A stretch of 64,000 bases of DNA from a virus (IMGVR_UViG_3300032315_000675:1-64000); one strand, 5' to 3'. Numbered from the stretch's first letter, positions 24,114 through 57,033 are shown. Notes: a model not told the origin generated them from the letters alone. Program-made: numbers and translations.

Positions 24114-24296
24114 ATGGACCGCAAAGACAATATGAATACGAAAGAGTGGCACGAAGAACGTGATGCCTCCGATGCCCCTGTTTGGATGTCTGTTGACGAA
24201 GCCAATGGATGGGCTAGCGGCTGGAACGCAGCCGTAGAAGCGGCAAAGGCCGAGGCTCCGTGGTGGGCCACCGGCGCTGGCCGTAGGGCCGACTAA
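24114..24296 (+). CDS. Early small hypothetical protein
   Basis: AAGGA RBS downstream of the promoter cassette. Confidence 0.5.
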   Translation: MDRKDNMNTKEWHEERDASDAPVWMSVDEANGWASGWNAAVEAAKAEAPWWATGAGRRAD

Positions 24297-24321
24297 AAAA
24301 AATTCAACAAAGAGGAAGACA

Positions 24322-24537
24322 ATGTCAACTGATGTGACTGACAAAACTTTCACGATGACAATGGCTCAAATGAAAGCCATGTTTGATGCTGGTGCTCGAT
24401 GTGGTGAGGGGCCGTCCAGTACACCCTACGCTGACTTCGTTGAGGCTGTTTACGAATTCGTTAACGAGGGCATGAAGTGGGGCGAAGAAGGCCACACTGA
24501 CTGGGATGTCGTTGAATCGATGGTTAAGAAGGGTTAA
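24322..24537 (+). CDS. Early small hypothetical protein
   Basis: GAGGA RBS. Confidence 0.6.
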   Translation: MSTDVTDKTFTMTMAQMKAMFDAGARCGEGPSSTPYADFVEAVYEFVNEGMKWGEEGHTDWDVVESMVKKG

Positions 24538-24540
24538 GGT

Positions 24541-25374
24541 ATGAACTACGAATTGACTAAAGAAGCAATGACAGCCACGTTGCGTAACCTTCTGCATGAT
24601 CCTGTTAGGTCAGTTGAGATTCACGGACATCGTATTATGATCGCTGCTCCGGAACTCAGTGATGTCTTTCGTGACCACCTGAAAGAGCGGGAAGCTATGT
24701 TGCGACGGGAACTCAAGAACATCGAACATGTTCGAGATGGCTTCGAATCCGGTTCGCGGGCTATCGTTTCGGCTAGGCTTAAGAAAAACACGCAAGAACT
24801 TAAAGGAACTGGCATGAACTATGAATTGACAGATGAAACTATCGAACATGGTGGTCGGACGCTGTATCGCATTCGTGCGCTTATAGATATGCCGTATCAT
24901 CGCGTTAAGGCGGGTGAGCTTGGCGGGTTTGTCGAGAATATCGAGAACCTTCAAGAGAATGCTTGGGTCTTTGACGATGCTCAGGTCTTTGACGATGCTG
25001 CGATCTCTGGCAATGCTCGGGTCTCTAGTTTTGCCAAGGTCTATGGCGATGCTAAGGTATTTGGCGATGCTAGGATCTTTGGCAATGCTTTGGTCTATGG
25101 TAATGCTATTGTCTATGGCGATGCTCAGGTCCGTAGTAATGCTATGGTCTTTGACAATGCTATGGTCTTTGACAATGCTAAGGTCTATGACAACGCTCTG
25201 GTTTTTGGTGATGCTTGGGTCTCCGGTGATGCTAAGGTCTCTGATAATGCCAGAGTCTATGGCAATGCTGAGGTCTCTGATAATGCTAGAGTCTATGGCA
25301 ATGCTGAGGTCTATGGCAAGGCTTTGGTCTGTGGCACTGATGAGGTTTCTAGCGATGCTAAGGTCTCAAAATAA
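24541..25374 (+). CDS. Hexapeptide-repeat (left-handed beta-helix) protein with a duplicated MNYELT start
   Basis: Many [DN]AxV[YFS]G-type repeats; internal AAGGAA RBS plus a second MNYELT at 24814. Confidence 0.8.
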   Translation: MNYELTKEAMTATLRNLLHDPVRSVEIHGHRIMIAAPELSDVFRDHLKEREAMLRRELKNIEHVRDGFESGSRAIVSARLKKNTQELKGTGMNYELTDETIEHGGRTLYRIRALIDMPYHRVKAGELGGFVENIENLQENAWVFDDAQVFDDAAISGNARVSSFAKVYGDAKVFGDARIFGNALVYGNAIVYGDAQVRSNAMVFDNAMVFDNAKVYDNALVFGDAWVSGDAKVSDNARVYGNAEVSDNARVYGNAEVYGKALVCGTDEVSSDAKVSK

Positions 25375-25497
25375 CACTTGACATTAATTAGAGTCCTGTT
25401 ATTATGATAATAGGAAGTGAGAAAGAACTTGACTTCTTCTTAAAATCTGTTATATTGTTTACACACTACATCGACAACACAAACAAGGACTAATGCA

Positions 25498-25698
25498 ATG
25501 AAACTAACTTTCAAGTGGGATGAGGACATGGGTGAGGCATTTCCGATCAAAAAGGATGTCACAGCCATCATGCAGGAACATCCATTGACTCTGGTTGACT
25601 TCCTCAATGATGTCATTGGTGAAGCCGAGGCCCTGCGCGAACATGCCATGCAGGGATTTAAAGACTGGTGTGAAGAGACTGCTCAGTCGGCAGAATAA
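25498..25698 (+). CDS. Early small hypothetical protein
   Basis: TTGACT...TATATT promoter and AAGGA RBS upstream. Confidence 0.55.
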   Translation: MKLTFKWDEDMGEAFPIKKDVTAIMQEHPLTLVDFLNDVIGEAEALREHAMQGFKDWCEETAQSAE

Positions 25699-25940
25699 TT
25701 GTTGACACGCTGGCCCTGCTAGCGTATACACTCAAACAAAGGAAATTTTTATGTTTACTTACGTGATTGTCGCTTTCATTCTTGGAATGGTTGTGATGGA
25801 CTTTATGTGGGCCTACAAGATGGGCATTCCCCAGGCCATGTGGCGTCGTTGGAAAAATCGCAAAACCCGCATTTAAGGGTTGACTTCTTCACAAAGAATC
25901 TATACATTAAGATCATAGATTGAAGCAACGGAAGCGTCAC

Positions 25941-26600
25941 ATGTCTCGTTATAAAGCTCCCAAGATTTCTTATTCGACCGACGAAGTGTTTGCTGCTGCT
26001 TGTGCTGCACAGCGCATCAACGGTGAATATATCAAGGAAGACAAGCATCTTTACGATACTGACGGGTATGTCCTTTCGGTCGAGAAGGTCGCTAACAAAA
26101 AGCTGACTTCTCAGTTTCTTCGCGGTGATTTTGAAATCAGCGATGATGATCGTGAACAGGGGCAAGAGGTACGGCAGTACTGCAACTCTCTGACGTTCAA
26201 GATCCTGCAAGGAAAGACTCTGAGTGAGTTTGAGCAGACCATGCTCAAGATTGCTGACAAAGAGATTGTTGACAGCTTCTATGATATTGCTGTTGTTTCG
26301 TCTCTCCCTGCTTCGTATGAGCGTTCTAAGGTTCGGCGCGAGCAGAGCAATCGTCTCCTCGATCATCAGGGTTGTCTGAATCAAGCAGCAGGTACCGTGG
26401 TTGATCTTGAAATCGAAGTCGTGCGCTGCAACTATAGCAACAACTGGAACACTTATTATGTTACTGCTATTGTTGAAAATGCTGTAGTGTTTTTTGCGTT
26501 TCGTGATCAGATTGAACTTGGTTCTAAAATCCGTGTCAAGGGTAAGGTTAAATCCCACAAAGAAGATCGTACTCAACTTAGCCACGTGAAAGTTGTGTAA
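25941..26600 (+). CDS. Hypothetical protein with C-terminal OB-fold-like domain
   Basis: 'IRVKGKVKSH...TQLSHVK' OB-like ending; TTGACT...TACATT promoter upstream. Confidence 0.55.
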   Translation: MSRYKAPKISYSTDEVFAAACAAQRINGEYIKEDKHLYDTDGYVLSVEKVANKKLTSQFLRGDFEISDDDREQGQEVRQYCNSLTFKILQGKTLSEFEQTMLKIADKEIVDSFYDIAVVSSLPASYERSKVRREQSNRLLDHQGCLNQAAGTVVDLEIEVVRCNYSNNWNTYYVTAIVENAVVFFAFRDQIELGSKIRVKGKVKSHKEDRTQLSHVKVV

Positions 26601-26604
26601 GAGT

Positions 26605-26703
26605 TACAGGAAGCGGACAAGTCCCGAATGGCAGGTCGTATATTGGGTCTCCCTTAAGTGGGTTGTAAATTCCCTCAGTGTGCTGGCTTGTCCGCTTCTT
26701 GTA
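26605..26703 (+). ncRNA. Candidate structured non-coding RNA (19-bp closing stem, ~60-nt interior)
   Basis: TACAGGAAGCGGACAAGTC pairs with GGCTTGTCCGCTTCTTGTA (2 G-U pairs); followed by a U-tract. Confidence 0.5.
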
Positions 26704-26723
26704 TTTTCTTTTAGGGTTTATGT

Positions 26724-27098
26724 ATGACGGATTGGACGATACCAATTCAAAGTGTAGGGCGCTCTTGCCGTCCGAGTATGGAAGTCAAAATGCTTACCGC
26801 AGGAAAAGGCAAGTCTGTTTTTGTGGATATAGAATCCGATGCTTGGATCCCGATGGTATCGCGACTCCAATCTGTACTGAGCCCTCACTATGCTGAATAT
26901 TTTGACTATGATACCGGTGAGACATACTGGAAGAAGTTCACTGGGATGCCTAAAATAGCAGACTTATATAGAGCAAACAATGTCATTCGCAAGAACGAAG
27001 ACGGTTCATATGAATATGTTAAGAATCGTCAAACTGGCGAGGAGCGGCCGCTGACCGAACAAGAAGTTATTTGGCTTATTTTGAAAGCAGGAGCATAA
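26724..27098 (+). CDS. Hypothetical protein
   Basis: ORF in the forward gene run; start uncertain. Confidence 0.5.
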   Translation: MTDWTIPIQSVGRSCRPSMEVKMLTAGKGKSVFVDIESDAWIPMVSRLQSVLSPHYAEYFDYDTGETYWKKFTGMPKIADLYRANNVIRKNEDGSYEYVKNRQTGEERPLTEQEVIWLILKAGA

Positions 27099-27099
27099 A

Positions 27100-27438
27100 A
27101 TGCAAATCGCAATCGCAGACACTACCGGCAATGTTTCGCTTTGGTGCGAAGTCATCGGCATCAACAAAGATGGCTCCATCAATTTTAGTGTTATCAACGG
27201 TGCTTGGGATGGCAAGTATCACAATAATACAGTGTATGTAGAATATACTAAGGCAACCTATCCTGGCTTCCTTGTCTGGGTTGGTCAAGCTAAGTTCGGC
27301 GGTCAAGATTACAACGATGCTATTCCTTGGATTCAGGATCAGGTTGTTCATCCTGAATATGTGATGATCCAGCCTGATCAGTATGTTGGTCCTGTTAGAA
27401 AACCGCGGTGGGTAGACCAAGACGACATTCCTTTTTGA
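27100..27438 (+). CDS. Hypothetical protein with acidic DDIPF tail
   Basis: AGGAG RBS; C-terminus QDDIPF. Confidence 0.6.
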   Translation: MQIAIADTTGNVSLWCEVIGINKDGSINFSVINGAWDGKYHNNTVYVEYTKATYPGFLVWVGQAKFGGQDYNDAIPWIQDQVVHPEYVMIQPDQYVGPVRKPRWVDQDDIPF

Positions 27439-27457
27439 GCGATGTTGAAAGCATAAG

Positions 27458-27688
27458 ATGGCAAACCCTGTTCCCGAACACAAAGACAAGTTAGGTAGAC
27501 TGCTCTCAGTAGGGGAGTACGTTGCCTACTCTGATAGCAATCAACTCCGTCTTGGAACTATCATAAAATTAAATCCAAAGATGTTAAAGATTAAGCCTCT
27601 AGGTAGCGCATGGGATATTAATAAATATCCTGATGACACCCTTAAGGTTGAAGGTCCTGACCTTACTTGGTATCTGCTGAAAAAGTAA
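27458..27688 (+). CDS. Small hypothetical protein (possible SH3/KOW-like barrel)
   Basis: 'DKLGRLLSVGEYVAY...GTIIKLNPKMLKI'. Confidence 0.5.
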   Translation: MANPVPEHKDKLGRLLSVGEYVAYSDSNQLRLGTIIKLNPKMLKIKPLGSAWDINKYPDDTLKVEGPDLTWYLLKK

Positions 27689-27744
27689 GGCTTGACTTTT
27701 GTTTGTCTTCGCTGTATAGTCGCTATATAAACTAAAGGAAACAC

Positions 27745-37272: not shown

Positions 37273-37321
37273 GTACCCGAAGTCGTTTTTGGTTGACTTC
37301 GGGTACCTTTTTGTCTATATT
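37273..37321 (+). repeat. Stem-loop/early-promoter cassette, copy 2
   Basis: Perfect 12-bp inverted repeat GTACCCGAAGTC/GACTTCGGGTAC overlapping TTGACT-17-TATATT. Confidence 0.88.
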
Positions 37322-37351
37322 AAATCATAAGCTGAGAAATAGGAATATATT

Positions 37352-37759: not shown

Positions 37760-39885
37760 TAATTGATGTCTGGAAATGCTAAAGTTTCAAAATAACTGTT
37801 GCTTTTTCCTGTAAAGCGTATGTAATAGAGTATAAGCTGAGAAACAGAGATTTGATAATGTTTGAAGTAACTACCGAGAAGCTCGGAGAATCACAATGAC
37901 CCCGTTTATGCCGACAGTCACCCTGTCCCCGGATGCCCTTGTGCGTATCGAGGGTGGCGAGGTTATAACATGGGCCGAGTGCGAACGCCGTTTACTTGCC
38001 GCCCGCACCCCTGACAAAGCCGGCAAAAGACGCCTAAAACTATACCCCTCTGATCCAAAAGGACCGCCCATGTTAAGAAAGCAAATGACCGCCCATGCAC
38101 CAGAGGGTGAGCCGCTGTTTGTTAGCGTGACTTGCGGAGGCGAACTCTGCTGGTGCGGAAAGCCTGCGGTCCGAAAGGTTGGGGAGGAGTTTGCGTATGA
38201 CGAGCCGAACCCTGAACGACACAACCTCACTCGGTATATCTGCGCCTATCACTTCGCTGAACTCATGGGGCCTGCAGGTGCGCGATCTGTCGGCATTGCC
38301 CCTGCCCCAGAGGGGGAGGCGTGGCGGACTGTTCCGGTAGAGCCGACCGAAGCGATGTTGGACGCGATGTTCACCGCGTATGTCGGCAGCGAAGGCAGTT
38401 ACCGAGCCGCCTACTGTGCAATGCTCGCAGCATCCCCTGTCGTTCCGGTAGAGGTGAGCAGGGAGATTGATTTCCCCACAGTTGACGAGCCGATGGCAGA
38501 CGGCTTTTTGTATCGAACCACAGTTACCGGCGAGCGCCACATCGTTCATGCCGATACTGGGTTTGTCCTAGTCAAGTTACCCTACGACTATCGTTTTACC
38601 GACAACGCGACGCAGCGTAGTAACGCCGACGCCATCCTCGCAGCCCTTCGCCCTACCGATACAGGGAGGGAAGGGTGATGGTTCGGCAGAGTTTTCGTTG
38701 TGATTTGTTCGGACACAAAATGCCGGAACAAGGGTGGTGGGGAGACGGGCTTTATGGCCGGGTCGTTCCCGGCGGCACTGACGGTATCGGTCGATCACAT
38801 TTTGACGTTGTTCTCACCTGCCCGCGATGCGGCGCAGATTGGACCACCGCCCGCTTCCACGGTCATCAAGTAGAAAAATACATGGAGCGTCCCCAATGAC
38901 CACCCCTGACATAGCCGATCTGTTGCACGAGCCTTACCCGCACCCCGCAGTGCCGGTTTACGATCGGACCCGCGATGAGTTTGCAATGACTGCACTGACG
39001 GGGCTTCTATCGGGTCGCGCGTTCTGGTACACCGACGCCTCTAACTATGCAAAAGCTGCCTACATCATTGCCGACGCCATGCTAGCAGAGAGAAACATCA
39101 TGACCCCCGACGAACTCCCCGCTGACGCAAAGCCCGAGCCGCCCTTAAAGGAGAAGACTAATGAATGAGATCGATGCAATCCGTCACGTCCGTAAACAGT
39201 CAGAGACTCAGTTTGAGCCCGTCATGCGTAATCTTATTACAGCTATCGGGCAAGCGGAGCGCTTAGGTACGCTAACGCAAGAGCAATTCGATCAACTACA
39301 TCAGGCAGCTGATCGACTCCTTACTGCTGCACAGACATCAAAATTGCTAAAATAAAGGTTGCTTTATTCTTATAAAGTGTATACATTAAATTATAAGCTG
39401 AGACACAGAGAGATACACATGAAATTGTTTCTGGTAAAATTCACTGTTTCGTCGTCAACGTATATGAATGACGATGAACGCGACGATGAATACACCCGTA
39501 TGGTGGAAGCGGTTGACGAAGACCATGTCGAACGTATTATCAAAAATCAACCAGAGTTTAAAACCGATGAGTATTCGGTTTATCGTCGGGTCTATTTTAA
39601 TGAAATTACTACGGTCTTGAGGGATTCGTCAAATTCATCCCCCGACGAACTCCCCGCTGATATGGAGGCGGTTGTCGCGCGGCTTGAGGTGTCGGCAATC
39701 GACCCTGTTCCGTGGTCGGACCTCCGCGCCCTCCTGAAAGCATACCAAGAGCAGCGCCGGGCTTTGGTGGCCTGTCGGGGTGCCGCCGCGCCGCTGCTGG
39801 AGCAATCCGAAGACCGTGTCTGGCGTCGCGCCAAGATGATCGTGGACACGGTTGACACCGCCCTCAACCAGAAAGGTGATGAACG

Positions 39886-40389
39886 ATGAGCGAGAAACTG
39901 TTACCTTGTCCGTTCTGTGGGGGCGAAAGTAACCTTTGGCACAACCCGCCGCACAGTTTTGGCGTGGTCTGCGATGCTTGCGGCTGCGAAATTACTGGGC
40001 CGGACAACACTCGCGCGGGAGCCATCGCAGCATGGAACCGCCGCACCCCTGCACCAGAGGGGGAGGCTTCGCTTTGGGGCTGCGCTGACGGGAACGGAAT
40101 AGACCCACGGTTGGTCTTCCGTGACAGGCCCACTGCCGAACAGGTCGCCGCTGATATGAATATGGTGGTCCAGCCCCTCTACGCATCCCCTGTCGTTCCG
40201 GTAGGGGTGAGCGAAAGAATGGATGAAGTCAAAAGCTGGGTGGAAGACGCGGAGTGCAGCCGAGGTTGCTCGTCTTGGCGTCCTGACGTTCACGGGCGAT
40301 CACGTTGTGACTGTGGGCGAGGGGATGCGCTTGAAGCCACCGACGCCATCCTCGCAGCCCTTCGCCCTACCGATACAGGGAGGGAGTGA
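39886..40389 (+). CDS. Lar (restriction-alleviation)-like Zn-finger domain fused to further modules
   Basis: 'LLPCPFCGG...VCDACG...AIAAWNRR'. Confidence 0.7.
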   Translation: MSEKLLPCPFCGGESNLWHNPPHSFGVVCDACGCEITGPDNTRAGAIAAWNRRTPAPEGEASLWGCADGNGIDPRLVFRDRPTAEQVAADMNMVVQPLYASPVVPVGVSERMDEVKSWVEDAECSRGCSSWRPDVHGRSRCDCGRGDALEATDAILAALRPTDTGRE

Positions 40390-40928
40390 TGGGACGCAAA
40401 CTCTACCCGTCAAACCCAAAAGCACCGCCGCCTAAACAGGAACCCCCAATGACCACCACTGACATAGCCGGTCTGTGCGAAGGGTTTGACGAACTTCTGA
40501 TTTCCCTTCGCAGTGAGACCGATAGCCATCCTCGTGGGGGTCGGAGGCTTGTAAATCCCGATGGCCCCGAAGCAGCCGACACCCTTGAACTCCTAGTCGC
40601 TGAGGTGGAGCGGATGCGGGAGGCTTTGGAGTTCTACGCTGACGAAGATAACTGGTTCGGAGTTTACATGACTGGTTGCGGACCAATGGCTGATGATTGG
40701 TCCATCGACGGTCACCCCTACTGGCCAGATGGAAAGCCCGGAAAAACCGCCCGAGCCGCCCTTAAAGGAGAAGACCAGTGAGCCTAAGACTTTCACGTAA
40801 GACACAATTTGTCGAAGGTGGCCTTCTTGATCTTTTATCTTATTTGGATTCTATATCCGGATGGGTAAACTATTGTGAAATTACATTTCTTGAAAGAGGT
40901 TACGTTGTCCGCACAGGAGAATAATAAT

Positions 40929-41240
40929 ATGGAAGAACTTAAAAATTGGAAACCAATCTCAGACGCACCTAAAGACGGCGCGGCGATCTATACTCACGAT
41001 GGAGCGAATCCTGTTATTGCCGCTTGGTGTTCTTGGCCCAACCACAGTTTCGAAGAGGAAGGTCCGTGGTGGAACCGAAGAAAGGTCAAAGTAGAAAAGC
41101 CCAACACAGAGGGCTGGTATGCCGTATATTGTGTCCGTGGTAAATGGACCGCTTCTCACCAGATTTTCCCATCACTTTGGAGGCCCTTGCCAAAGATGCC
41201 TTGGGAATGCATCCCTACCGATACAGGGGTGGAAGGGTGA
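40929..41240 (+). CDS. DUF551-like protein
   Basis: 'WKPISDAPKDG...WRPLP'; AGGAG RBS. Confidence 0.6.
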   Translation: MEELKNWKPISDAPKDGAAIYTHDGANPVIAAWCSWPNHSFEEEGPWWNRRKVKVEKPNTEGWYAVYCVRGKWTASHQIFPSLWRPLPKMPWECIPTDTGVEG

Positions 41241-41584
41241 TGGGCTTCGTAATCGGCATAGTGATCGTTTCGGGTCTCGTCATCGCCATAGGCTTCGCTC
41301 CTGCGAAGAAAGACTATCGCACCCTGACATGTGACTTCGACTAGAAAGGTGATGAACGATGACCGATACAGTAGAAGAATTATTCCGAATGCAAGTTGCA
41401 CATGGGCTGGAGAAGTCCACGTTGCTAAAAGACTCCGGAGGTTGGCCGGACTACCAAGAAATTTCTGATTACATTGATCGAATGGACAAAACAGAGTTTC
41501 TTTTGTATCTATCGATAGCGATTGAAGATCGACTTAGAAATCTGGAATGACATGTCATCTTGCACATACTAGTAATTAAAAATC

Positions 41585-41634
41585 GTATCCGAGGTCATTT
41601 TTTGTTTGACTTCGGGTACCCGTTTTGCTACATT
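41585..41634 (+). repeat. Stem-loop/early-promoter cassette, copy 3
   Basis: GTATCCGAGGTC/GACTTCGGGTAC overlapping TTGACT-17-TACATT. Confidence 0.85.
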
Positions 41635-41667
41635 GAATCATAGACAGCAGCAAACGGAGATATCACG

Positions 41668-41919
41668 ATGAATACTATGTTCTTCAAAGTCCGCGCAAAA
41701 CCCACCGACGCGCAAGTGATCCAGCTTAGTGCTGACTTTTACGAAAACTTTACCAACAAAAACGCGATGTACTTCACCGAGATTGCGATTAACGCAGACA
41801 CTACGCTTGCTACCGTGCAAAACAAAGCAGAAGTGATTGCGAACTGGCAACGCGCCCGTGCCGTAGTCGCTTACCAAAGTAAAGTAGTGAAACTGCTCAC
41901 CCAATCGCAACGCAAATAA
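41668..41919 (+). CDS. Early small hypothetical protein
   Basis: GGAG RBS after the cassette. Confidence 0.6.
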   Translation: MNTMFFKVRAKPTDAQVIQLSADFYENFTNKNAMYFTEIAINADTTLATVQNKAEVIANWQRARAVVAYQSKVVKLLTQSQRK

Positions 41920-41973
41920 AAGATCATTTACCCGATCTTTTCGGTTGACATTGGTTACCCTCTTTGCTACATT
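41918..41973 (+). repeat. Variant stem-loop/early-promoter cassette
   Basis: AAAAGATC/GATCTTTT hairpin, TTGACA-17-TACATT, same GAATCATAGACAG leader as copy 3. Confidence 0.75.
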
Positions 41974-42010
41974 GAATCATAGACAGACACAAACAAACGG
42001 AGATACGAAC

Positions 42011-42286
42011 ATGATCTACACTCTCAAGATTTATCGTTATGATCGTCGCTGCAAGAGCGGTGAACGCTTCGTCAAGACCTACGAGTATGATCGCCCGGAC
42101 GATGCTTCGATGGATCGTGAAGTCAACGCTCTCCGTGGCTGCGGCTACTTTGACGACATGTTCCGCATCGAATATGCTCCCAAGTTCATCACTGTCAAGA
42201 ACCTGATGAGCGGCAAGGATGTGCAGGTTGCTGCTGATACTCCCTACTACCTTCGTCCCGACTCTGAATCCTACTGGTGCAACTAA
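42011..42286 (+). CDS. Early small hypothetical protein
   Basis: GGAG RBS; 'VKNLMSGK.V....DTP....P.SE.YW'. Confidence 0.65.
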   Translation: MIYTLKIYRYDRRCKSGERFVKTYEYDRPDDASMDREVNALRGCGYFDDMFRIEYAPKFITVKNLMSGKDVQVAADTPYYLRPDSESYWCN

Positions 42287-42287
42287 G

Positions 42288-42479
42288 ATGACTATGACGA
42301 CCGAAATGACCAACCCCGAACTTCTCAACTATTTGATTGAGTCCGCAACTGTTCCCGCAGAAGCAAAGACTGCATATTCTGCTGGTTACTTTGAGGGAAC
42401 TCTGCTGACCCTGATGGAACGTTTTCCTGAGGTTCGTGCAGAGATTGAAGACCGCGTAAACTATCGTAGGAGCAACTAA
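42288..42479 (+). CDS. Small hypothetical protein
   Basis: 'AYSAGYFEG'; coupled ORF. Confidence 0.5.
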   Translation: MTMTTEMTNPELLNYLIESATVPAEAKTAYSAGYFEGTLLTLMERFPEVRAEIEDRVNYRRSN

Positions 42480-42710
42480 GATGGTGACCGACAATGATCA
42501 CGCCCTGCGCATCGTCCAGAAGATGGCGAAAGAACGCAACAAGACCATCGGGGATGTTCTTGCTGAATTTATCAAGTGGGAAAAGAATAATGAGTGCCAG
42601 CATTTTTGGCCCGATGAAAACACGGCATGTCTCATGCTGATTAAGCGACGAGCGAGTCAGTAATGCTGCAATATATCCCTTCAAAAGTCAACATCTACAA
42701 GGAAAATAAA

Positions 42711-42926
42711 ATGGAAACTGTCGTTAAGGTTGTCGGTATCGCTGTTGTCGGTATCGCTGTTATCGTTGTCCTCGGGCTTATTCTTAGCCTGCCGGTCATG
42801 TGGCTTTGGAATGCCTGTCTCGTTGCCGCTATTCCTGGAATCAAGGAAATCGGGTGGCTCCAGGCTTGGGGTATCTTGATTCTGTGTGGATTGCTCTTTA
42901 AGAATACGTCTTCGTCTTCTAACTAA
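42711..42926 (+). CDS. Small membrane protein
   Basis: 'MWLWN...I.WLQAWG..IL..LLF'; AAGGAA RBS. Confidence 0.65.
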   Translation: METVVKVVGIAVVGIAVIVVLGLILSLPVMWLWNACLVAAIPGIKEIGWLQAWGILILCGLLFKNTSSSSN

Positions 42927-43012
42927 GAAAACTTAGAGTTTGGTATAAATATAGGCATACCAGATAATAACTAAAATCTAAAAATCAAAATTAATATTAC
43001 AGGAGAATAAAA

Positions 43013-43234
43013 ATGCTAAAAACTATTACTGCACTAATGATCGGAGCTAGCCTAGTTGCTGGTCAAGCCATTGCTCAAAACAGCGCACTGACACCTCGGG
43101 TCGGTGATCGGGTCGGTTCTCAGGCCGACATGTCTAGCGAGATTGCCGGCATGCCGCTGTCAGTGCTACTGATTGGTTCTATCGTAGCTGTTGTCGCTTA
43201 CAAAGCACTAGACGACAAACCTGCAAGTAACTAA
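43013..43234 (+). CDS. Small secreted/membrane protein
   Basis: Signal peptide plus C-terminal TM; TATAAATA and AGGAG upstream. Confidence 0.6.
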   Translation: MLKTITALMIGASLVAGQAIAQNSALTPRVGDRVGSQADMSSEIAGMPLSVLLIGSIVAVVAYKALDDKPASN

Positions 43235-43543
43235 ACAAAATAACACTTGACAACTGCTTAGGTTGGGCGTATAGTTGATATATATTTCGACTATGGGGTC
43301 AGTCATGGACTGCAAGTGCGGTGCTAGAATAAGATGAATGCAGCTAAAGAAAACACATTTAGGGCATTGCGTGATGAGGAGTTGCTTGTGACCAGTTTTT
43401 GGTGTAGGTTTGGTTGGCACACTTGGACCAAATATCGTGAACCCGAACTTGTTCGTGAGGGCATCCATAAGCTGACCATTCAAGAACGCAGATGCGGGTC
43501 TTGTAACATCGCCAATCGTAAAGTCTTGAATAAGGATTAAGCA

Positions 43544-43909
43544 GTGTCAATGCACCTAGCACCTGTGTTCGTTAGCACGATCAATCAGGGTAAGATCAAA
43601 AAGAAACTCACTGCACCCCAGCAACGAGCATTAGCTGAACACGAGGCCTGGCTACGCAAGCGCGGGCTTCATAGCGATCAACTTAACGCAAGGAAACCTA
43701 AAAAGCGGGTCGCAGAAGAAAGCACCTTCACCTACGAGTCTCGCTGCACCGTTCCTACCTCAAACACGGTGGGCAATGGGTTCAAGAAAGAAGAAAATAC
43801 CTATACAGGCACCTTGATTAAAGGAGTGGCTACGATGCATAAGAGCAATGCCGTTCCTGTCATTGACAAAAAACAAATGGAAGAAATCTCCCGGATGCGT
43901 CGGGGCTGA
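43544..43909 (+). CDS. Hypothetical phage protein
   Basis: 'YTGTLIKGVATMHKSNAVPV...EEISRMRR'. Confidence 0.65.
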   Translation: MSMHLAPVFVSTINQGKIKKKLTAPQQRALAEHEAWLRKRGLHSDQLNARKPKKRVAEESTFTYESRCTVPTSNTVGNGFKKEENTYTGTLIKGVATMHKSNAVPVIDKKQMEEISRMRRG

Positions 43910-43940
43910 TCTACTACGAGATTCGCAAGAAGGAAGAATA

Positions 43941-44780
43941 ATGAAAATTGCATTAGCTAGTGATTTACATCTAGAGTTTCAGACTATCACGCTCCCCAAC
44001 ACTGAGGGGGCGAAGGTCCTTATTCTGTCCGGCGATATCTGCGTAGCACATTCATTGCATGATCATCCCATTGACAAGCCTGTGCCTAAAGACGCAATGA
44101 AGCCTGGACGTAATCAAAGTGCTGCATATAAGTACCGTGAGTTCTTCCAACATGTCAGTGCAGAGTATGACCACGTAGTTTACATTGCAGGCAACCACGA
44201 GTTCTATCATGGTCGCTTCCCTGATGCCTATGACTGGCTGCGGGAAGAAATGAAGAATTATACTAACATTCACTTCCTTGATAAAGAGCATGTTGAGATT
44301 GATGGTGTGACCTTCGTAGGCGGCACCCTCTGGACGGATATGAACAAGAATGATCCTACTACTATGCAAGTCATTGAGGGTATGATAAATGACTTTCGAA
44401 TCATTCGTAACAGTCAGCGCAACTATTCTAGATTTACTCCTCTGGATTCCGTAGTCCATCATAAGGAGACGGTAGAGTACATCAAGAATGTAGTTGACAG
44501 TGACCCTGCGAAGAAGTACGTTGTAGTTGGACACCATGCTCCTACGTCCTTGAGTATCCACGAAAAGTACAAGAAAGATGTATGGATGAACGGCGGCTAC
44601 TATAGTGACCTGTCTGAGTTCATACTAGATCGCCCTCAGATCGCCCTCTGGACACATGGACACATGCACGATCCTCATGACTACATGATGGGAGAGACAC
44701 GCATTGTGTGCAATCCTAGGGGCTATAAGGGGCACGATCCTCACGCTGACCACTTTCAATTAAAGTTTTTGGAGATTTGA
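43941..44780 (+). CDS. Calcineurin-like metallophosphoesterase
   Basis: SDLH, GD, GNHE, GHH, HGHMH and NPRGY motifs intact. Confidence 0.92.
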   Translation: MKIALASDLHLEFQTITLPNTEGAKVLILSGDICVAHSLHDHPIDKPVPKDAMKPGRNQSAAYKYREFFQHVSAEYDHVVYIAGNHEFYHGRFPDAYDWLREEMKNYTNIHFLDKEHVEIDGVTFVGGTLWTDMNKNDPTTMQVIEGMINDFRIIRNSQRNYSRFTPLDSVVHHKETVEYIKNVVDSDPAKKYVVVGHHAPTSLSIHEKYKKDVWMNGGYYSDLSEFILDRPQIALWTHGHMHDPHDYMMGETRIVCNPRGYKGHDPHADHFQLKFLEI

Positions 44781-44998
44781 GTATGACTGGTATTATTTGG
44801 GAATCGAAGTTGGATGAAGTGTTCGATTGTAAGGTCGAACGTATTGACGAGAGCCGCGGTAAGCTGACTGTCGTTGATCAATTTGATCGTATCCTTCTTG
44901 ACACGGAAGTTGGACTGTCATATGGTGCAATGTTTGGACCTGACGTAGCAGACGTTGCCCTTTGGGAAGACATGGTCATTAAGGTTATTGACGGATAA
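44777..44998 (+). CDS. Hypothetical protein
   Basis: Coupled ORF; 'LSYGAMFGPDVADV..W'. Confidence 0.55.
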   Translation: MSMTGIIWESKLDEVFDCKVERIDESRGKLTVVDQFDRILLDTEVGLSYGAMFGPDVADVALWEDMVIKVIDG

Positions 44999-45070
44999 TT
45001 ACCCGTTTCACTTGTGTTAATCATCAAATGGTTGTATTATGATAACACGCTGTAATTATACAAAAGGTTC

Positions 45071-45100
45071 GAGGGGTCCTTTCAAAACCCCTCATTTTTT
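45071..45100 (+). terminator. Intrinsic terminator-like hairpin
   Basis: GAGGGGT...ACCCCTC followed by ATTTTTT. Confidence 0.6.
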
Positions 45101-53582: not shown

Positions 53583-56500
53583 ATGAGCATAAACGGTCAA
53601 CAAATAATTAACATTGGATTGCCTAATGAATCTGCAGGCAGCGACTCCCTGTACGAGGCGTTCAACAAGACAGAAGACAACTTTACAACCTTATTCACCT
53701 GTGCTAGCCCTTATACTAATTTTGTGGCGCTTACTGGCATCAGTGTGAATTCTAATGCTAACGCAGGTACAGTGTCTATCACTAACACCGGCGTTACTAA
53801 CATCATTGCTGGTACAAACATAACAATCAATCAATCTAACGGAAACGTTACTATTTCGTCAACCGGCGGCGGTAACGGTGGAGGAAGTGGCACTGTTACT
53901 AGCGTAGGACTTGCACCAGTATCAAATAGTAGAATCGTTGTGACTAATTCACCTATCGTTTCTTCAGGGAACATCGGCATTGACCTAGCTACAACAGGTG
54001 TTGTTCCTGGAACATACACTGCCCCTACAGTAACACTTGACGCATATGGCAGAATCACTTCTGCTGCTAATACAACTAGCAGCGGTACTGTAACAAGCGT
54101 AGGAATTATCCCTGGTTCAGGCATCGGAGTTGCAAGCAGCCCGGTTACTACTGTCGGAAACGTGACTGTAACAAATACGGGTGTCGTGAGATTGACTGCT
54201 GGACTTGGCATCACGCTTTCAGCACCTAACGGAATTGTTCAGGTTTCTTCGGTTTATACAGGAACTGTAACTTCAGTAGGAATCAGTAGCAATACACTGA
54301 CCGTATCAAGCAGTCCTATAACTGCATCAGGTAATATTGCAGTTGAGTTGCCCTCATCGATCACGCTTAGTGGAAACATCACTGCTGCAAACGGAAATCT
54401 TGGAAATCTAGCAACAGCAAATTTCTTCTCGGGCGACGGCGGATTGTTGTCAAATCTTGCTGGTGCTGTTGGAACACAAACAACTATAGCTAACGGCACG
54501 AGCAATGTAAGAGTCTTTACTAACGGAAACGTTACTACTAGTGTTGCCGGTAACGCGAACATAGTGATCGTCACTGGAACTGGCGCCAACATTGCCGGCA
54601 CTGCTAATATCTCAGGCAATGCAAATGTTGGGAATATCGGTGCTTCATCCGGGGTGTTCACATCAAATGTAACATCCGGCAACGTCTATGCTAACTCAGG
54701 CACAGTTGGAGCTTCATTGCTAGCAGGTACACTAACAACTGCGGCACAGCCAAACATCACTAGTGTTGGTACATTAGGCTCACTAACTGTAACAGGTAAA
54801 GTAACTGCTGGTCAATTACAAGGTGACGGTGGCAACATCAGTAACATTCAAGGCGGCAATGTGTCTGGTGCAGTAGCTACTGCAACTACTGCCGCGACTG
54901 TCACAACTGCCGCGCAACCAAACATCACATCTGTTGGTACGCTGACTTCGTTGACTACTTCAGGAAATACATTCTTGGCGACTTCAAGTGGTAACGTCGG
55001 CATCAACACTACGAACCCCACCTCCGCCCTGGTAGTTGGTGGCTCTCAGGCAGGAAACGCAGGCCTAGAGGTCGTCCCCGGTTCGGGGGTAGTCCTTCAG
55101 GGCTACAACCGAAGTACATCTGCCTACACTAGTCTGAACTTAGATGGCGCTACGATCGGGTTCCGCCCTAATGGGTCTACTCGTTTAACTGTAGACGCAT
55201 CCGGTGCTAACGTAACCGGTACTTTCGGGGTAAGCGGGAACGCTAACGTAGGTAATTTGGGCACTGCGGGTTTGGTTGTTGCAACGGGAAATGTTACTGG
55301 AGGCAATTTAGTTACCGGAGGCGTCGTGGCCGCAACAGGTAACGTAGTTGCCGGAAACCTATATGCTAATTCGGGTACACTTGGAGTCGCTATCCTTAAT
55401 GTATCTGGTATAAGTAATCTCAACGCGGTTGGTAATGTAAGAATTTCGGGCGGCAGCGCGAACCAAATATTAAAAACAGATGGTGCAGGAAACTTAACCT
55501 GGGTTGATCCAAACGGCGGATACTATTTACATACGCAAAACTCATCAAGTAGTACATGGACTGTAACTCACAATCTTAATAGACAATATGTGACAGTTGA
55601 AGCGATTGATGCTAATGGAAATTCATACACCGGTCGTTATGATTATCCAACAATCAACTATACCAATGCGAATGCATTGACAATGACGTTTGCTTCCGCA
55701 GTCCAAGGATACGCTGCTGTTACCGGCGGCGGCACAAACATCAATAGCGTTAGTGTGGGGAACTCCACACCCGGCGGGGTCAACACTCAAGTACAATTCA
55801 ACGATGCGGGTGCATTAGCAGGCAGTTCAGGCCTTGTATATAACAAGACTACAGGAACATTGACCGCTACGCTATATGCCGGATCAGGCGCAAATTTAAC
55901 CAATATCGCAGGTGCTAATGTTACAGGGGCAGTGTCCTTTGCATCAACTGCTAATGCAGTAGCTGGCGCAAATGTCTCAGGCACAGTGTCTAGTGCAACT
56001 ACTGCTGCAACTGTAACAACTGCTGCACAACCAAACATCACATCAGTTGGTACATTGGCTAATCTCAACGTCTCCGGCAATGTAAGTTTCACCGGATCCA
56101 ACGTCTCTTTGGGTTCCAACGCAAATGTAAGAATCACAGGTGGTTCGTCTGGACAAATATTGTCTACTGATGGTTCCGGAAATCTAAGTTGGGTTCCTAC
56201 TGGAACAGCTACAACTGCTGCAACAGTCACAACTAACGCACAGCCAAACATCACATCTGTTGGTACACTGACATCATTGAGTGTGTCGGGCAACATCAGC
56301 GGTGCTAATCTAACAGGTAATCATTTCGGGAACGGGGCATCATTATCAAGTATCACCGGTGCCAATGTTACAGGCACTGTACCTACTGCAAACAACTCTG
56401 CATTCTTGGGTGGTACCGCAGCCGCAAGTTATCTTTTGACAACTGGTACTGGTAGCTCACTTACTGCAATTGCAGGTGCTAATGTTACAGGCACTGTTGC

Positions 56501-57014
56501 TAATGCGACAACAGTAACAGGTGCAACTCAAAACAATATCACAACACTGGGAGCCTTGACAGTGTTAAGCTCCGGTGCAAACACGACGGCAGGTACTATC
56601 ACAGGTAATTGGTCACTCTCTACTGGTTCGCGATTATCTGCTACCTACGCTGACTTAGCAGAATATTATCAAGCTGACGCAACGTATGAACCAGGAACTG
56701 TTCTCATGTTTGGCGGTGACAATGAAGTTACACTCGCAGAGGAAGCAACGAATAGAGTTGCCGGCGTAGTATCTACAAACCCTGCGTATGCAATGAATTC
56801 TGGTTGCCCTGATATTGCAGTAGCAATCGCACTGCAAGGTAGAGTACCTTGCAAAGTTCAGGGTACTGTTAGAAAAGGTGACATGATGATCAGCGCAGGC
56901 AGCGGCTACGCGGTAGCTTGCAGCGAACCTCGTTTAGGACAAGTCATCGGTAAAGCATTAGAAAACTTTGATCTCAGCGACGGCGTGATTGAAATCGTAG
57001 TCGGCAGATTATAA
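53583..57014 (+). CDS. Tail-fibre-like virion protein with C-terminal chaperone/peptidase-like domain
   Basis: G/N/T/S-rich, repeated 'AQPNITSVGTL'; C-terminal 'ADLAEYY...GVVST.PAY.MN...GRVPCKV'. Confidence 0.8.
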   Translation: MSINGQQIINIGLPNESAGSDSLYEAFNKTEDNFTTLFTCASPYTNFVALTGISVNSNANAGTVSITNTGVTNIIAGTNITINQSNGNVTISSTGGGNGGGSGTVTSVGLAPVSNSRIVVTNSPIVSSGNIGIDLATTGVVPGTYTAPTVTLDAYGRITSAANTTSSGTVTSVGIIPGSGIGVASSPVTTVGNVTVTNTGVVRLTAGLGITLSAPNGIVQVSSVYTGTVTSVGISSNTLTVSSSPITASGNIAVELPSSITLSGNITAANGNLGNLATANFFSGDGGLLSNLAGAVGTQTTIANGTSNVRVFTNGNVTTSVAGNANIVIVTGTGANIAGTANISGNANVGNIGASSGVFTSNVTSGNVYANSGTVGASLLAGTLTTAAQPNITSVGTLGSLTVTGKVTAGQLQGDGGNISNIQGGNVSGAVATATTAATVTTAAQPNITSVGTLTSLTTSGNTFLATSSGNVGINTTNPTSALVVGGSQAGNAGLEVVPGSGVVLQGYNRSTSAYTSLNLDGATIGFRPNGSTRLTVDASGANVTGTFGVSGNANVGNLGTAGLVVATGNVTGGNLVTGGVVAATGNVVAGNLYANSGTLGVAILNVSGISNLNAVGNVRISGGSANQILKTDGAGNLTWVDPNGGYYLHTQNSSSSTWTVTHNLNRQYVTVEAIDANGNSYTGRYDYPTINYTNANALTMTFASAVQGYAAVTGGGTNINSVSVGNSTPGGVNTQVQFNDAGALAGSSGLVYNKTTGTLTATLYAGSGANLTNIAGANVTGAVSFASTANAVAGANVSGTVSSATTAATVTTAAQPNITSVGTLANLNVSGNVSFTGSNVSLGSNANVRITGGSSGQILSTDGSGNLSWVPTGTATTAATVTTNAQPNITSVGTLTSLSVSGNISGANLTGNHFGNGASLSSITGANVTGTVPTANNSAFLGGTAAASYLLTTGTGSSLTAIAGANVTGTVANATTVTGATQNNITTLGALTVLSSGANTTAGTITGNWSLSTGSRLSATYADLAEYYQADATYEPGTVLMFGGDNEVTLAEEATNRVAGVVSTNPAYAMNSGCPDIAVAIALQGRVPCKVQGTVRKGDMMISAGSGYAVACSEPRLGQVIGKALENFDLSDGVIEIVVGRL

Positions 57015-57033
57015 ACATTATAGGATTTCAAGA

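Follow-up and report, generated by a model that had tools for sequence, protein, structure and literature searches.

The window analysed here, that is, the whole stretch of 64,000 nt (IMGVR_UViG_3300032315_000675:1-64000), belongs to a 77-kb record, ~22% complete, of a jumbo phage with a GC content of 43%, the PolB of which finds its best matches (45–46%) in jumbo phages of Sinorhizobium and Agrobacterium. Within the window lies a GC-rich island, already apparent in a preliminary description of the sequence and borne out by the GC profile (55–65% GC against a background of ~43%), which is the sole region of the record to reach at least 55% GC. The island is interrupted by AT-rich native DNA at 39165–39638, and its GC content drops again past 40780. 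Its features (Table 1) probably form two tandem units, at about 37896–39164 and 39639–40781, followed by a more diverged remnant extending to 41366. The first copy of the D7 repeat and a sigma-70-like unit at 37286 have the leader ATAAGCTGAGA in common. The island is flanked by D1 repeats, each with a stem-loop and a sigma-70-like promoter, at 37273–37342, 41599 and 41938.

Table 1. Genes, linkers and native repeats of the GC-rich island (positions counted from the first nucleotide of the window).
Feature	Position	Strand	Remarks
D7 copy 1, native AT-rich promoter/leader repeat	37803–37850	+	48 nt, 79% identical to 39364–39411; heads cassette unit 1
Gene P1, 260 aa	37896–38678	+	ORF; linkers A', A, B and C connect four unrelated modules
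Linker A' (HAPEGE), degenerate copy of A	38092–38118	+	4 mismatches in 22
Linker A (PAPEGE), copy 1	38299–38325	+	Repeated at 40046
Linker B (ASPVVPV), copy 1	38430–38459	+	Repeated at 40183
Linker C1+C2, copy 1	38626–38681	+	DAILAALRPTDTGRE, then stop, ribosome site and next start; 46 nt identical to 40340–40385
Gene P2, 74 aa	38675–38899	+	ORF; small Cys-rich protein in the C2-to-G slot; phrog_12346, E=2.8e-5
Linker G (start and MTTPDIA), copy 1	38891–38923	+	33 nt, 94% identical to 40444
Gene P3, 90 aa	38896–39168	+	G, helical module, D abutting E; phrog_20565, E=1.2e-8
Linker D (PDELPAD), copy 1	39104–39125	+	22 nt identical to 39639–39660
Linker E (gene end, ribosome site, start), copy 1	39132–39164	+	33 nt, 94% identical to 40749
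Gene P4	39161–39355	+	Variants on up to 9 other contigs
Native AT-rich segment between units	39165–39638	+	GC 0.37–0.47; P4, D7 copy 2, N-terminal half of P5
D7 copy 2	39364–39411	+	79% identical to D7 copy 1
Gene P5, 156 aa	39419–39889	+	Native AT-rich N-terminus joined in frame at linker D to imported D-to-F gene
Linker D, copy 2	39639–39660	+	Identical to 39104–39125; left edge of GC-rich block 2
Linker F (NQKGDER, stop, ribosome site, start), copy 1	39864–39893	+	30 nt, 90% identical to 41337
Gene P6, 167 aa	39886–40389	+	Lar zinc ribbon, A, beta-rich module, B, Cys-rich module, C
Linker A, copy 2	40046–40072	+	Repeated at 38299
Linker B, copy 2	40183–40212	+	Repeated at 38430
Linker C1+C2, copy 2	40340–40395	+	46 nt identical to copy 1
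Gene P7, 131 aa from GTG or 110 aa from ATG at 40449	40386–40781	+	ORF; short spacer, G, module, E
Linker G, copy 2	40444–40476	+	94% identical to copy 1
Linker E, copy 2	40749–40781	+	Read as ARAALKGEDQ*; right edge of GC-rich block 2
Gene P8, about 103 aa	40929–41243	+	Mixed GC; ends in diverged C2 linker (PTDTGVEG*)
Linker F, copy 2	41337–41366	+	90% identical to copy 1; precedes native AT-rich gene 41359–41550

All the direct repeats listed in the preliminary description were recovered in a repeat search of the window. The region contains 62 repeated 16-mers, the highest count among the 3.5-kb bins of the window, compared with none in 200 dinucleotide shuffles, and the repeats are therefore beyond chance. 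The longest is the 46-nt identity between 38626–38671 and 40340–40385, with a partial third copy at 41213–41243, and an exact 18-mer from this C1+C2 linker is present in 19 viral contigs. Each repeat in the window would correspond to two copies of one linker, one per unit. Linkers mark the right edge of GC-rich block 1 and both edges of block 2: directly after the first copy of linker E, GC content falls from ~0.55 to 0.41, and within P5, the N-terminus of which matches phrog_11654, it jumps exactly at 39639. In P3, linker E is read out of its usual frame, and the gap between D and E is 6 nt, compared with 187 nt in a related cassette (L004).

As the preliminary description had it, P1 and P6 align at the protein level only at three linkers. 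P1 yields 541 representative matches, none of them full length and each covering one module only. In its AF2 model, confident domains (residues 11–40, 71–140 and 201–250) alternate with stretches of pLDDT below 50 (49–63, 145–149 and 180–194) around linkers A', A and B, and in the model of P6 the pLDDT is 88–95 in both N-terminal domains, 60 at A and 49 at B, so that in both proteins the model loses confidence at the linkers and regains it in the domains on either side. The linker peptides (TPAPEGE, ASPVVPVGV, DAILAALRPTDTGRE, MTPDELPAD and MTTPDIA) are rich in Pro and Gly and inter-domain. At the nucleotide level, individual stretches have close relatives in foreign contigs, with 93.8% identity to L108 across P2 (38651–38923) and 91% identity to L096 across the module of P7 (40547–40777).

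The N-terminus of P6 is a Lar-like domain, as had been proposed, confirmed by both PF14354 (46.4 bits against a cut-off of 28.6, 4.8e-12, profile positions 1–58 of 58) and TIGR03655 (40.8 against 39.6, positions 1–55 of 55). It contains the four cysteines of a zinc ribbon (CPFC...CDAC) and is modelled by AF2 as three short strands and a helix with a pLDDT of 88–90; its best fold matches are zinc ribbons (Trm112 and Rpb9/C11), at E-values of only 0.2–3. Across the modules, searches of Pfam, PHROGs, NCBIfam, PDB sequences and PDB structures (Foldseek) returned only Lar, a zinc ribbon and unnamed phage families. P8 resembles DUF551 by eye only, and no window protein matches Ead_Ea22 or DUF551 (PF04448) in Pfam at E≤0.1; PF04448 does occur in three relatives (P0038, P0090 and P0101), and DUF551 modules of relatives have PTDTG on both flanks. 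The preliminary description had considered the array a source of anti-defence diversity. The Lar domain of P6 and the methylases and ArdA encoded beside related cassettes in other contigs provide a hint in this direction, to which no other module adds, and, judging from these sequence affinities, the cassettes might serve an anti-restriction or host-takeover role.

The linkers are not confined to the window. In total, 49 distinct loci carry at least 2 linkers, namely, the window and 48 other metagenomic viral contigs, mostly of 57–68% GC, from more than 25 samples. In all 49 loci the linkers share a single strand, the opposite one carrying none, and follow the near-constant order D, F, A, B, C1, C2, G, E, which is realised exactly in block 2 of the window, L100 and L109. 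The 186 segments between linkers fall into 131 unrelated clusters, with each slot occupied by 9–26 clusters, for instance, 21 clusters among 41 instances between A and B and 26 among 37 between B and C1. Among 843 pairs of segments from the same slot, 78% are unrelated, and the flanking linkers are ~94% identical whatever the identity of the module, a value inflated by linker detection at no more than 3 mismatches to the window copies. A scan with P0024 yielded 13 further cassette loci, the P0024 contig itself not being among them. Thus, given that the linkers elsewhere have different flanks, they do not conform to an array occurring only here with fixed flanks; they are junctions of a combinatorial system of modules, as the preliminary description had suggested.

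This distribution bears directly on the simplest account of the island, a local tandem duplication of one cassette followed by decay. The two tandem units do share the same linker order, and each stands behind a copy of the native D7 leader, but the modules in equivalent slots are unrelated although the linkers around them are 94–100% identical, the closest relatives of the window modules are scattered over different foreign contigs (L095, L004, L006, L108, L009, L010, L096 and L120), and the linkers recur in 48 other contigs with other flanks. We therefore consider local duplication extremely improbable. The idea of an array generated locally is likewise not supported: the window holds what appear to be two imported canonical units, and the evidence of shuffling comes mainly from the wider gene pool of high-GC phages.

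The conservation of the linkers extends to the DNA itself, beyond what the encoded peptides require. For linkers A, B, C1, D and G, the only ones for which this test is free of the detection bias, codons are invariant in 10–24 flank-distinct instances per linker, and most of the consensus codons are minority ones, with background usages of 17% for GCA, 14% for TCC, 13% for ATA and 18% for ACA, such that the chance of a single instance having all consensus codons is 1e-4 to 2e-3. The codons CCT GCA CCA GAG GGG GAG of linker A are nearly invariant in 18 flank-distinct instances; in linker B, GCA TCC CCT GTC is present in 21 of 21 instances and GTT in 20 of 21; and in linker G, the minority Ile codon ATA is found in all 17. 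Since its two window copies are read in different frames, linker E is a feature of the DNA rather than a protein motif. These observations have to be weighed against the possibility that the linkers are conserved for a protein-level reason, as protease sites, docking motifs or flexible linkers, with the mosaic arising by illegitimate recombination and selection and the DNA identity being a by-product. Such a possibility would fit the location of these Pro- and Gly-rich peptides between folded domains and their strong conservation in 104 of 120 protein homologues, those that carry at least 2 linkers. It fits poorly with the invariance of synonymous, mostly minority codons, the two reading frames of linker E and the ends of homology blocks at linkers (see below), and three of the linkers (C2, E and F) run through the stop codon, the ribosome site and the next start and so are partly non-coding. 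On balance, an exclusively protein-level explanation appears unlikely, although the conserved linker peptides could have a protein-level role as well.

Reassortment of the modules is evident from comparison of the assembled sequences. Of the 36 ends of homology blocks between the window and other contigs, 24 lie inside linkers, compared with 20% expected (p=2e-9). At the protein level, 102 distinct pairs of modules are joined across linker B, and there are 20 four-gamete quartets. Natural recombinant proteins include P0007, in which the N-terminal module of P1 is joined to the last module of P6 at 6–10 nt of shared sequence; P0024, in which the native N-terminus of P5 and linker D are joined to different modules; and P0004, in which the last module of P6, 100% identical, stands behind a different middle module. 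Modules also occur as free-standing genes, as in the case of P0272, an 84-aa D-to-F gene. The preliminary description had invoked microhomology, which is the wrong scale: apart from P0007, most joints are identical patches of 20–46 nt, pointing to homologous recombination over short homologies.

Import from GC-rich phages, as proposed in the preliminary description, is supported. The island matches GC-rich phage contigs, and no nucleotide similarity to the 36.7–42.5 kb region was detected in 80 relatives of the host phage, defined by ClpP loci with 77–86% amino acid identity. Similar GC-rich cassette islands are present in other low-GC phages (L095 and L098/L103), and the neighbourhoods of the cassettes differ, including a jumbo phage, a contig that encodes a T7-type RNA polymerase and contigs with an integrase; in high-GC contigs, the cassettes close an early operon and have a weak integrase match as their neighbour. 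Cultured phages provided nothing meaningful for the island, P6 or single linkers in megablast, blastn and tblastn searches, and the linker set was not found in GenBank phages. Across 185,579 species genomes, a 19-mer of linker B had only two matches, in Alistipes and Streptomyces, which we dismissed as chance because no other linker lies nearby, bar one weak match with three mismatches in Streptomyces. A metagenome scan with a 24-mer across the native/foreign joint at 39.63 kb, in which near-identical records may have been withheld, had no match. A search for the host of the donor phages with two structural proteins returned only a 27% match to a Rhizobium phage and a partial match to a Pseudanabaena phage. 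For the alphaproteobacterial origin proposed in the preliminary description, the Rhizobium match and the best PolB matches are faint hints.

We considered compositional drift as proof of long residence in the recipient genome, and found it unsupported: relative to their relatives, the window copies show no AT-ward drift (161 against 141 substitutions, p=0.27). Accordingly, import must be recent, or else the join could be artefactual. The latter option would have assemblers jumping between co-occurring phages at the 20–46-nt repeats, rendering the island or some of the module combinations chimeric. All our data are metagenome assemblies, with recombination being read from sequence comparison; the repeats are common to phages from similar samples; and many variant proteins come from contigs of 0.7–3 kb. 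Nevertheless, the same arrangements recur in different samples (L004 and L005; linker patterns L100/L104 and L098/L103), and exact P1, P5 (the native-foreign fusion) and P6 are found in both JGI/IMG and ENA, on a 143.5-kb contig. Furthermore, the native-foreign joints at ~37.89, 39.16 and 40.78 kb are located at ribosome-site/start sequences rather than at repeats of k-mer length, the 6–10-nt joint of P0007 is too short for an assembler jump, and one linker order is maintained in 49 loci, many on contigs of 20–70 kb. Assembly artefact is thus quite unlikely in our view.

Fixed order, single orientation and near-invariant sequence are also what one would expect of recombination sites, and in L004 and L096 the cassettes have weak matches to tyrosine integrases downstream of them, so that a dedicated site-specific or template-driven system, be it a recombinase, a shufflon- or integron-like element or a retroelement, might recognise the linkers and move the cassettes. 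Yet the eight linkers differ and share no core sequence other than CCCCTG, which is present in A and B; every copy is a direct repeat, and cassette neighbourhoods differ among contigs. The notion of a hairpin or recombination site, suggested by CCCCT...AGGGG in linkers A, B and C2, was rejected, as folding z-scores range from +1.1 to -2.05 without a consistent hairpin and differ between copies, including those of B. The preliminary description had envisaged exchange without an integrase and, in agreement, no integrase, resolvase, reverse transcriptase, RecA or other recombinase was found in the 77-kb record, an incomplete genome whose ~22% completeness makes this weak evidence. Unlike shufflons and integrons, which combine a dedicated recombinase with a common site (inverted sfx repeats or folded attC), the locus displays neither as far as the 77-kb record goes, and unlike diversity-generating retroelements, it has no RVT_1 match in that record and its repeats are short junctions with unrelated sequence between them. 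We regard a dedicated system as very unlikely.

Conserved junctions mediating modular exchange are an old idea, and the present locus adds no new principle to it but a clearly delimited example that lends itself to testing. The modular theory of lambdoid phages, as cited in PMC3157838 (Botstein in 1980; Campbell and Botstein in 1983), already included short conserved boundary 'linker' sequences. For relaxed homologous recombination by Rad52-like phage enzymes (PMC3945230), the picture is similar, with near-identical short DNA patches flanking exchangeable units, homologous exchange between otherwise dissimilar phages and temperate phages acting as the reservoir. Unlike in those systems, the patches in our loci are mostly inside genes, at inter-domain linkers, so that exchange keeps the reading frame and operates domain by domain, and there are eight distinct patches in fixed order. 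The PeSL cassettes of T4-type phages (Arbiol et al. 2010, PMC2839356; Comeau et al. 2014, PMC4122927) likewise consist of short conserved repeats in hyperplastic early regions, through which small non-essential genes are inserted, deleted or replaced; as with PeSLs, the linkers sit at the boundaries of homology blocks and recombinant variants are seen. The D1 repeats flanking the island, with their promoter and stem-loop, themselves look like PeSLs. By contrast, linkers A to G show no promoter or terminator match and no consistent hairpin; they are coding or ribosome-site/start junctions, imported with GC-rich DNA and not native to the T4-like genome.

Another parallel comes from the gp38 adhesins of T-even phages (Trojet et al. 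2011, PMC3157838), in which strictly conserved, ordered motifs separate variable segments drawn from a limited palette and recombinants between phages swap segments. According to PMC3157838, however, the Gly-rich motifs of gp38 are believed to make up the structural core of a single domain, and each of them is essential, whereas the linkers described here are predicted flexible spacers between autonomous domains that can stand alone as genes. Small early accessory proteins assembled from portable domains are also exemplified by the Ea22 variants and the 'portable' DUF551 encoded between xis/int and exo in lambda and Stx phages, according to the relevant passages of PMC10834534, and proteins built from portable domains are the subject of work on protein-fragment mosaicism in phages (Smug et al. 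2023, PMC10684548). DNA-level linkers are not described in the DUF551 passages of the former, and the word 'linker' is absent from the latter, in which we found no description of them.

Taken together, we think it probable that the island consists of two canonical cassette units imported from high-GC phages, with the linkers being homology patches for in-frame exchange of modules. Under this scenario, a jumbo phage of 43% GC would have received the units, in its hypervariable early region, from a pool of uncultured phages of 57–68% GC, in which small autonomous protein modules, sometimes whole genes, would be strung between eight short DNA linkers serving as portable homology patches of 20–46 nt. 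In a cell shared by two phages, or by a phage and a prophage, a homologous crossover inside a linker would swap the adjoining module in frame, giving rise to combinatorial sets of early proteins. The enzymes involved might be a phage annealing protein, UvsX or host RecA; phage Rad52-like recombinases are known to recombine short, diverged homologies (PMC3945230), and shuffling in T4-type phages proceeds by way of conserved motifs or cassettes (PMC2839356, PMC3157838). The direction of import, from high-GC phages into the jumbo phage, and selection maintaining the linkers are presumed. It is conceivable, if rather doubtful, that the linkers represent a selected 'exchange standard', that is, DNA signals retained for ordered, in-frame swapping of domains and genes between unrelated phage lineages, possibly with a sequence-preferring annealing enzyme, resulting in a combinatorial library of early counter-defence proteins common to these lineages. 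They would comprise temperate phages of high GC, a phage that encodes a T7-type RNA polymerase and a T4-like jumbo phage.

Early regions of phage genomes comprise many small, uncharacterised genes with fast turnover, and many of the known anti-defence genes are located there. The locus described here shows unusually cleanly how such early genes can be built and rebuilt, with a few ordered DNA linkers between which more than 130 different segments are exchanged in frame. If the linkers are true crossover points, they would provide a practical means of delimiting functional units in hundreds of uncharacterised proteins and could be used as anchors to mine libraries of modules from metagenomes. 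It would also follow that the accessory genes of temperate phages, with their very different base composition, are a pool available to virulent jumbo phages and used by them.

The source record is a 77.4-kb IMG/VR virus with a CheckV completeness estimate of 22%, the window being its first 64 kb. Encoded in the window are a family-B DNA polymerase, a ligase, ClpX and ClpP, and the polymerase shares 42-46% identity with the enzymes of jumbo phages such as Sinorhizobium phage Phosso, Agrobacterium phage Atu_ph07, Xanthomonas phage XaC1 and Serratia phage BF. Against the ~43% GC background of the window, the GC-richer island described earlier resolves into two blocks with native AT-rich DNA between them (see table), and no other stretch of at least 55% GC and no further linker copy was found in the whole 77-kb record. 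Here, linkers (D, F, A, B, C1, C2, G and E) are short, near-invariant DNA patches, modules are the segments between them, and a slot is the position between two named linkers. Every repeat pair listed in the preliminary description was recovered in place, and the region contains 62 repeated 16-mers versus none in 200 dinucleotide shuffles, the top count among the 3.5-kb bins of the window; three other bins are also rich in such repeats. The two genes said to share a scaffold with different domains in the slots, P1 and P6, indeed align only over PAPEGE (linker A), ASPVVPV (linker B) and DAILAALRPTDTGRE, and the Lar-like domain, located at the P6 N-terminus, scores above both curated cut-offs.

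Coordinates of the features discussed (in the window unless a contig is named) and identities of related modules in other contigs
Feature	Position	Remark
Stem-loop/promoter units	37273-37342; 41599-41655; 41938-41994	bracket the island-bearing segment
Native leader repeat	37803; 39364	one copy ahead of each unit
Left GC-rich block	about 37.9-39.16 kb	55-65% GC
Native AT-rich DNA	39165-39638	between the blocks
Right GC-rich block	about 39.64-40.78 kb	55-65% GC
P1	37896-38678	gene
P1 residues 36-60	38001-38080	TPDKAGKRRLKLYPSDPKGPP
Gene with frame-shifted tail	38896-39168	13-residue tail
Abutting linkers D and E	39104-39164	6 nt apart
Linker E copies	39132; 40749	different reading frames
P6	39886-40389	gene
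Counterpart of P1 residues 36-60	40386-40470	GRKLYPSNPKAPPP...MTTTDIA, in gene 40386-40781
Calcineurin-like phosphoesterase gene	43848-44780	a few kb downstream of the island
Other repeat-rich bins	24270-27737; 41605-45072; 55473-58940	22, 12 and 19 repeated 16-mers
C5 cytosine DNA methylase	L105:3532-4335	PF00145, E=4.9e-44
Weak phosphoesterase match	L105:4912-5970	directly downstream of the cassette
Related module, L095		87.5% identity
Related module, L004		90% identity
Related module, L006		90-96% identity
Related module, L096		91% identity
Related module, L108		94% identity
Related module, L009		95% identity
Related module, L010		95% identity

Far from being confined to the window with fixed flanks, the linkers recur with varying segments between them: protein-pattern scans with P1 and P6, together with exact-match scans for three of the linkers and a metagenome scan, identified at least two linkers in each of 48 other distinct contigs, from more than 25 samples and mostly of 57-68% GC. 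They were not found in GenBank phages, and linker B, the only one for which species genomes were scanned, was missing from all 185,579 species, each represented by a single genome. At every one of the 49 loci, all linkers share a strand and follow the almost constant order D, (F), A, B, C1, C2, (G), E, which the right block of the window matches exactly; the left block reads A, B, C1, C2, G, D, E. Thus, the proposed shuffling "array" amounts to two canonical units in tandem, each behind its copy of the native leader. In the left block, linkers D and E nearly abut, with E out of its usual frame, and the gene there ends in a frame-shifted tail; the D-to-E gap is 187 nt in contig L004, and the near-abutment resembles a scar left by the deletion of a D-to-E gene.

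The modules are highly diverse. Clustering sorts the 186 inter-linker segments into 131 groups, of which 101 have a single member; 21 clusters occur among 41 instances of the A-to-B slot and 26 among 37 of the B-to-C1 slot. Same-slot pairs from different loci are unrelated in 78% of 843 cases, and their flanking linkers are ~94% identical whatever the module identity, a value biased upwards because detection tolerated no more than 3 mismatches. In the proteins, linker B separates 102 distinct left-right module pairs, and 20 four-gamete quartets occur across it. Among the matches listed, 104 of 120 P6 homologues carry at least two linker peptides, most commonly in the architecture N-module, A, module, B, module, C, and of the 541 representative clusters retrieved by an exhaustive search with P1 none is a full-length relative, every match spanning a single module. 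AlphaFold models of P1 and P6 predict confident small domains with dips in confidence at the linkers, a picture that fits autonomous modules on flexible spacers. P1 residues 36-60 resemble, in reversed order, the G linker and C2-to-G spacer of gene 40386-40781; the database protein P0129 has this extension too, which may thus represent a longer form of the module. Whole enzymes, beyond small modules, also travel in the cassette frame, as in contig L105, where a complete C5 cytosine DNA methylase fills the C2-to-E slot. A calcineurin-like phosphoesterase lies near the cassettes in both the window and L105 (a weak match in the latter), which may be coincidence.

Judging from codon usage, the conservation of the linkers is at the DNA level. 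Linkers A, B, C1, D and G were located by peptide, that is, with no nucleotide ascertainment, and their codon choice is essentially invariant across 10-24 flank-distinct instances: GCA TCC CCT GTC is used in 21/21 instances and followed by GTT in 20/21, Ile is ATA in 17/17 and Leu is CTT in 19/19. These consensus codons are mostly minority ones in the same genes (GCA 17%, TCC 14%, ATA 13%, ACA 18%), so that the probability of all consensus codons in one linker instance is 1e-4 to 2e-3. Selection on the peptide is excluded as the whole explanation by these invariant codons, by linker E, read in two frames, and by the partly non-coding nature of linkers C2, E and F, each of which extends past a stop codon and over a ribosome-binding site into the following start.

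The closest relative of each window module lies in a different contig each time, and among the 36 ends of the homology blocks (90 nt or longer) that the island shares with other contigs, 24 lie within 5 nt of a linker, versus 20% expected (p=2e-9). Several database proteins are, by sequence, window genes rejoined at linkers. P0007 fuses the P1 N-module to the last P6 module, P0004 carries the latter, 100% identical, behind a different middle module, and P0024 joins the native AT-rich N-terminus of gene 39419-39889 and linker D to other modules. P0272 is a free-standing D-to-F gene of 84 aa, whose counterpart in the window lacks a start of its own, having been joined in frame to a native gene at 39639, the site of the GC jump. 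The evidence is comparative throughout and all sequences derive from metagenome assemblies; nevertheless, that the island or its combinations are chimeras of assembly is very improbable, given that the same arrangements recur across different samples, that exact fusion proteins are recorded by two sources, on a 143.5-kb contig, and that the native-foreign joints do not fall within k-mer-length repeats. The 6-10 nt shared at the P0007 joint are likewise too short for an assembler artefact.

The most economical reading of the linkers is short-patch homologous recombination: modules would be exchanged at short identical patches, and recurrent crossover there would keep the linkers uniform while modules diverge or are replaced. 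In reported crosses, Rad52-like phage recombinases outdid RecA on short and diverged homology, and the genome survey in the same paper showed frequent intragenic exchange of ~100-bp segments (PMC3945230). No sign of a dedicated recombination system was found: the eight linkers differ in sequence, are direct repeats only and form no consistent hairpin; neither integrase, resolvase, reverse transcriptase nor RecA was found in the 77-kb record, a weak point at 22% completeness. Homologous recombination at linkers takes the place of the microhomology-driven exchange originally invoked, which may instead apply to capture: imported-native joints fall at ribosome-site and start sequences, suggesting a separate step of illegitimate or microhomology joining.

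In 80 loci of host-phage relatives, recovered through ClpP (77-86% identical at the amino acid level), there is no nucleotide similarity to window 36.7-42.5 kb, which marks the 5.8 kb downstream of ClpP as hyperplastic. Each unit bracketing the island-bearing segment has a 13-bp stem-loop that overlaps the TTGACT -35 box of a sigma-70-like promoter, with TATATT or TACATT 17 nt further on; these units resemble PeSL cassettes of T4-type phages (PMC2839356). No AT shift was seen in the window copies, which suggests a recent import. At least two other low-GC phage backgrounds (~0.44-0.47 GC) carry GC-rich (0.55-0.65) linker-cassette islands, namely L095 (locus 1-1000 of IMGVR_UViG_3300046011_004498), which encodes a T7-type RNA polymerase, and L098/L103. 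Cassettes of the high-GC contigs are found at the end of an early operon, convergent with lysis and tail-fibre genes, and neighbour N6/N4 and C5 DNA methylases, an ArdA match, HNH nucleases, replication genes and weak integrase matches.

Lar is the sole recognisable function among the island modules; taken with the methylases and ArdA found next to related cassettes, it hints at an anti-restriction theme. Short conserved junctions as crossover points are an idea of the modular theory of lambdoid phages, as relayed in PMC3157838, with worked examples in the PeSLs of T4-type phages (PMC2839356, PMC4122927) and the glycine-rich motifs of gp38 (PMC3157838). Early proteins that are mosaics of portable domains are known from Ea22 (PMC10834534), and protein-fragment shuffling across phages at large is described in PMC10684548, the text of which nowhere uses the word "linker". 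What differs here is an ordered set of eight linkers that serves intragenic and intergenic joints alike, an uncultured gene pool, and capture by phages that are unrelated in type and in base composition.
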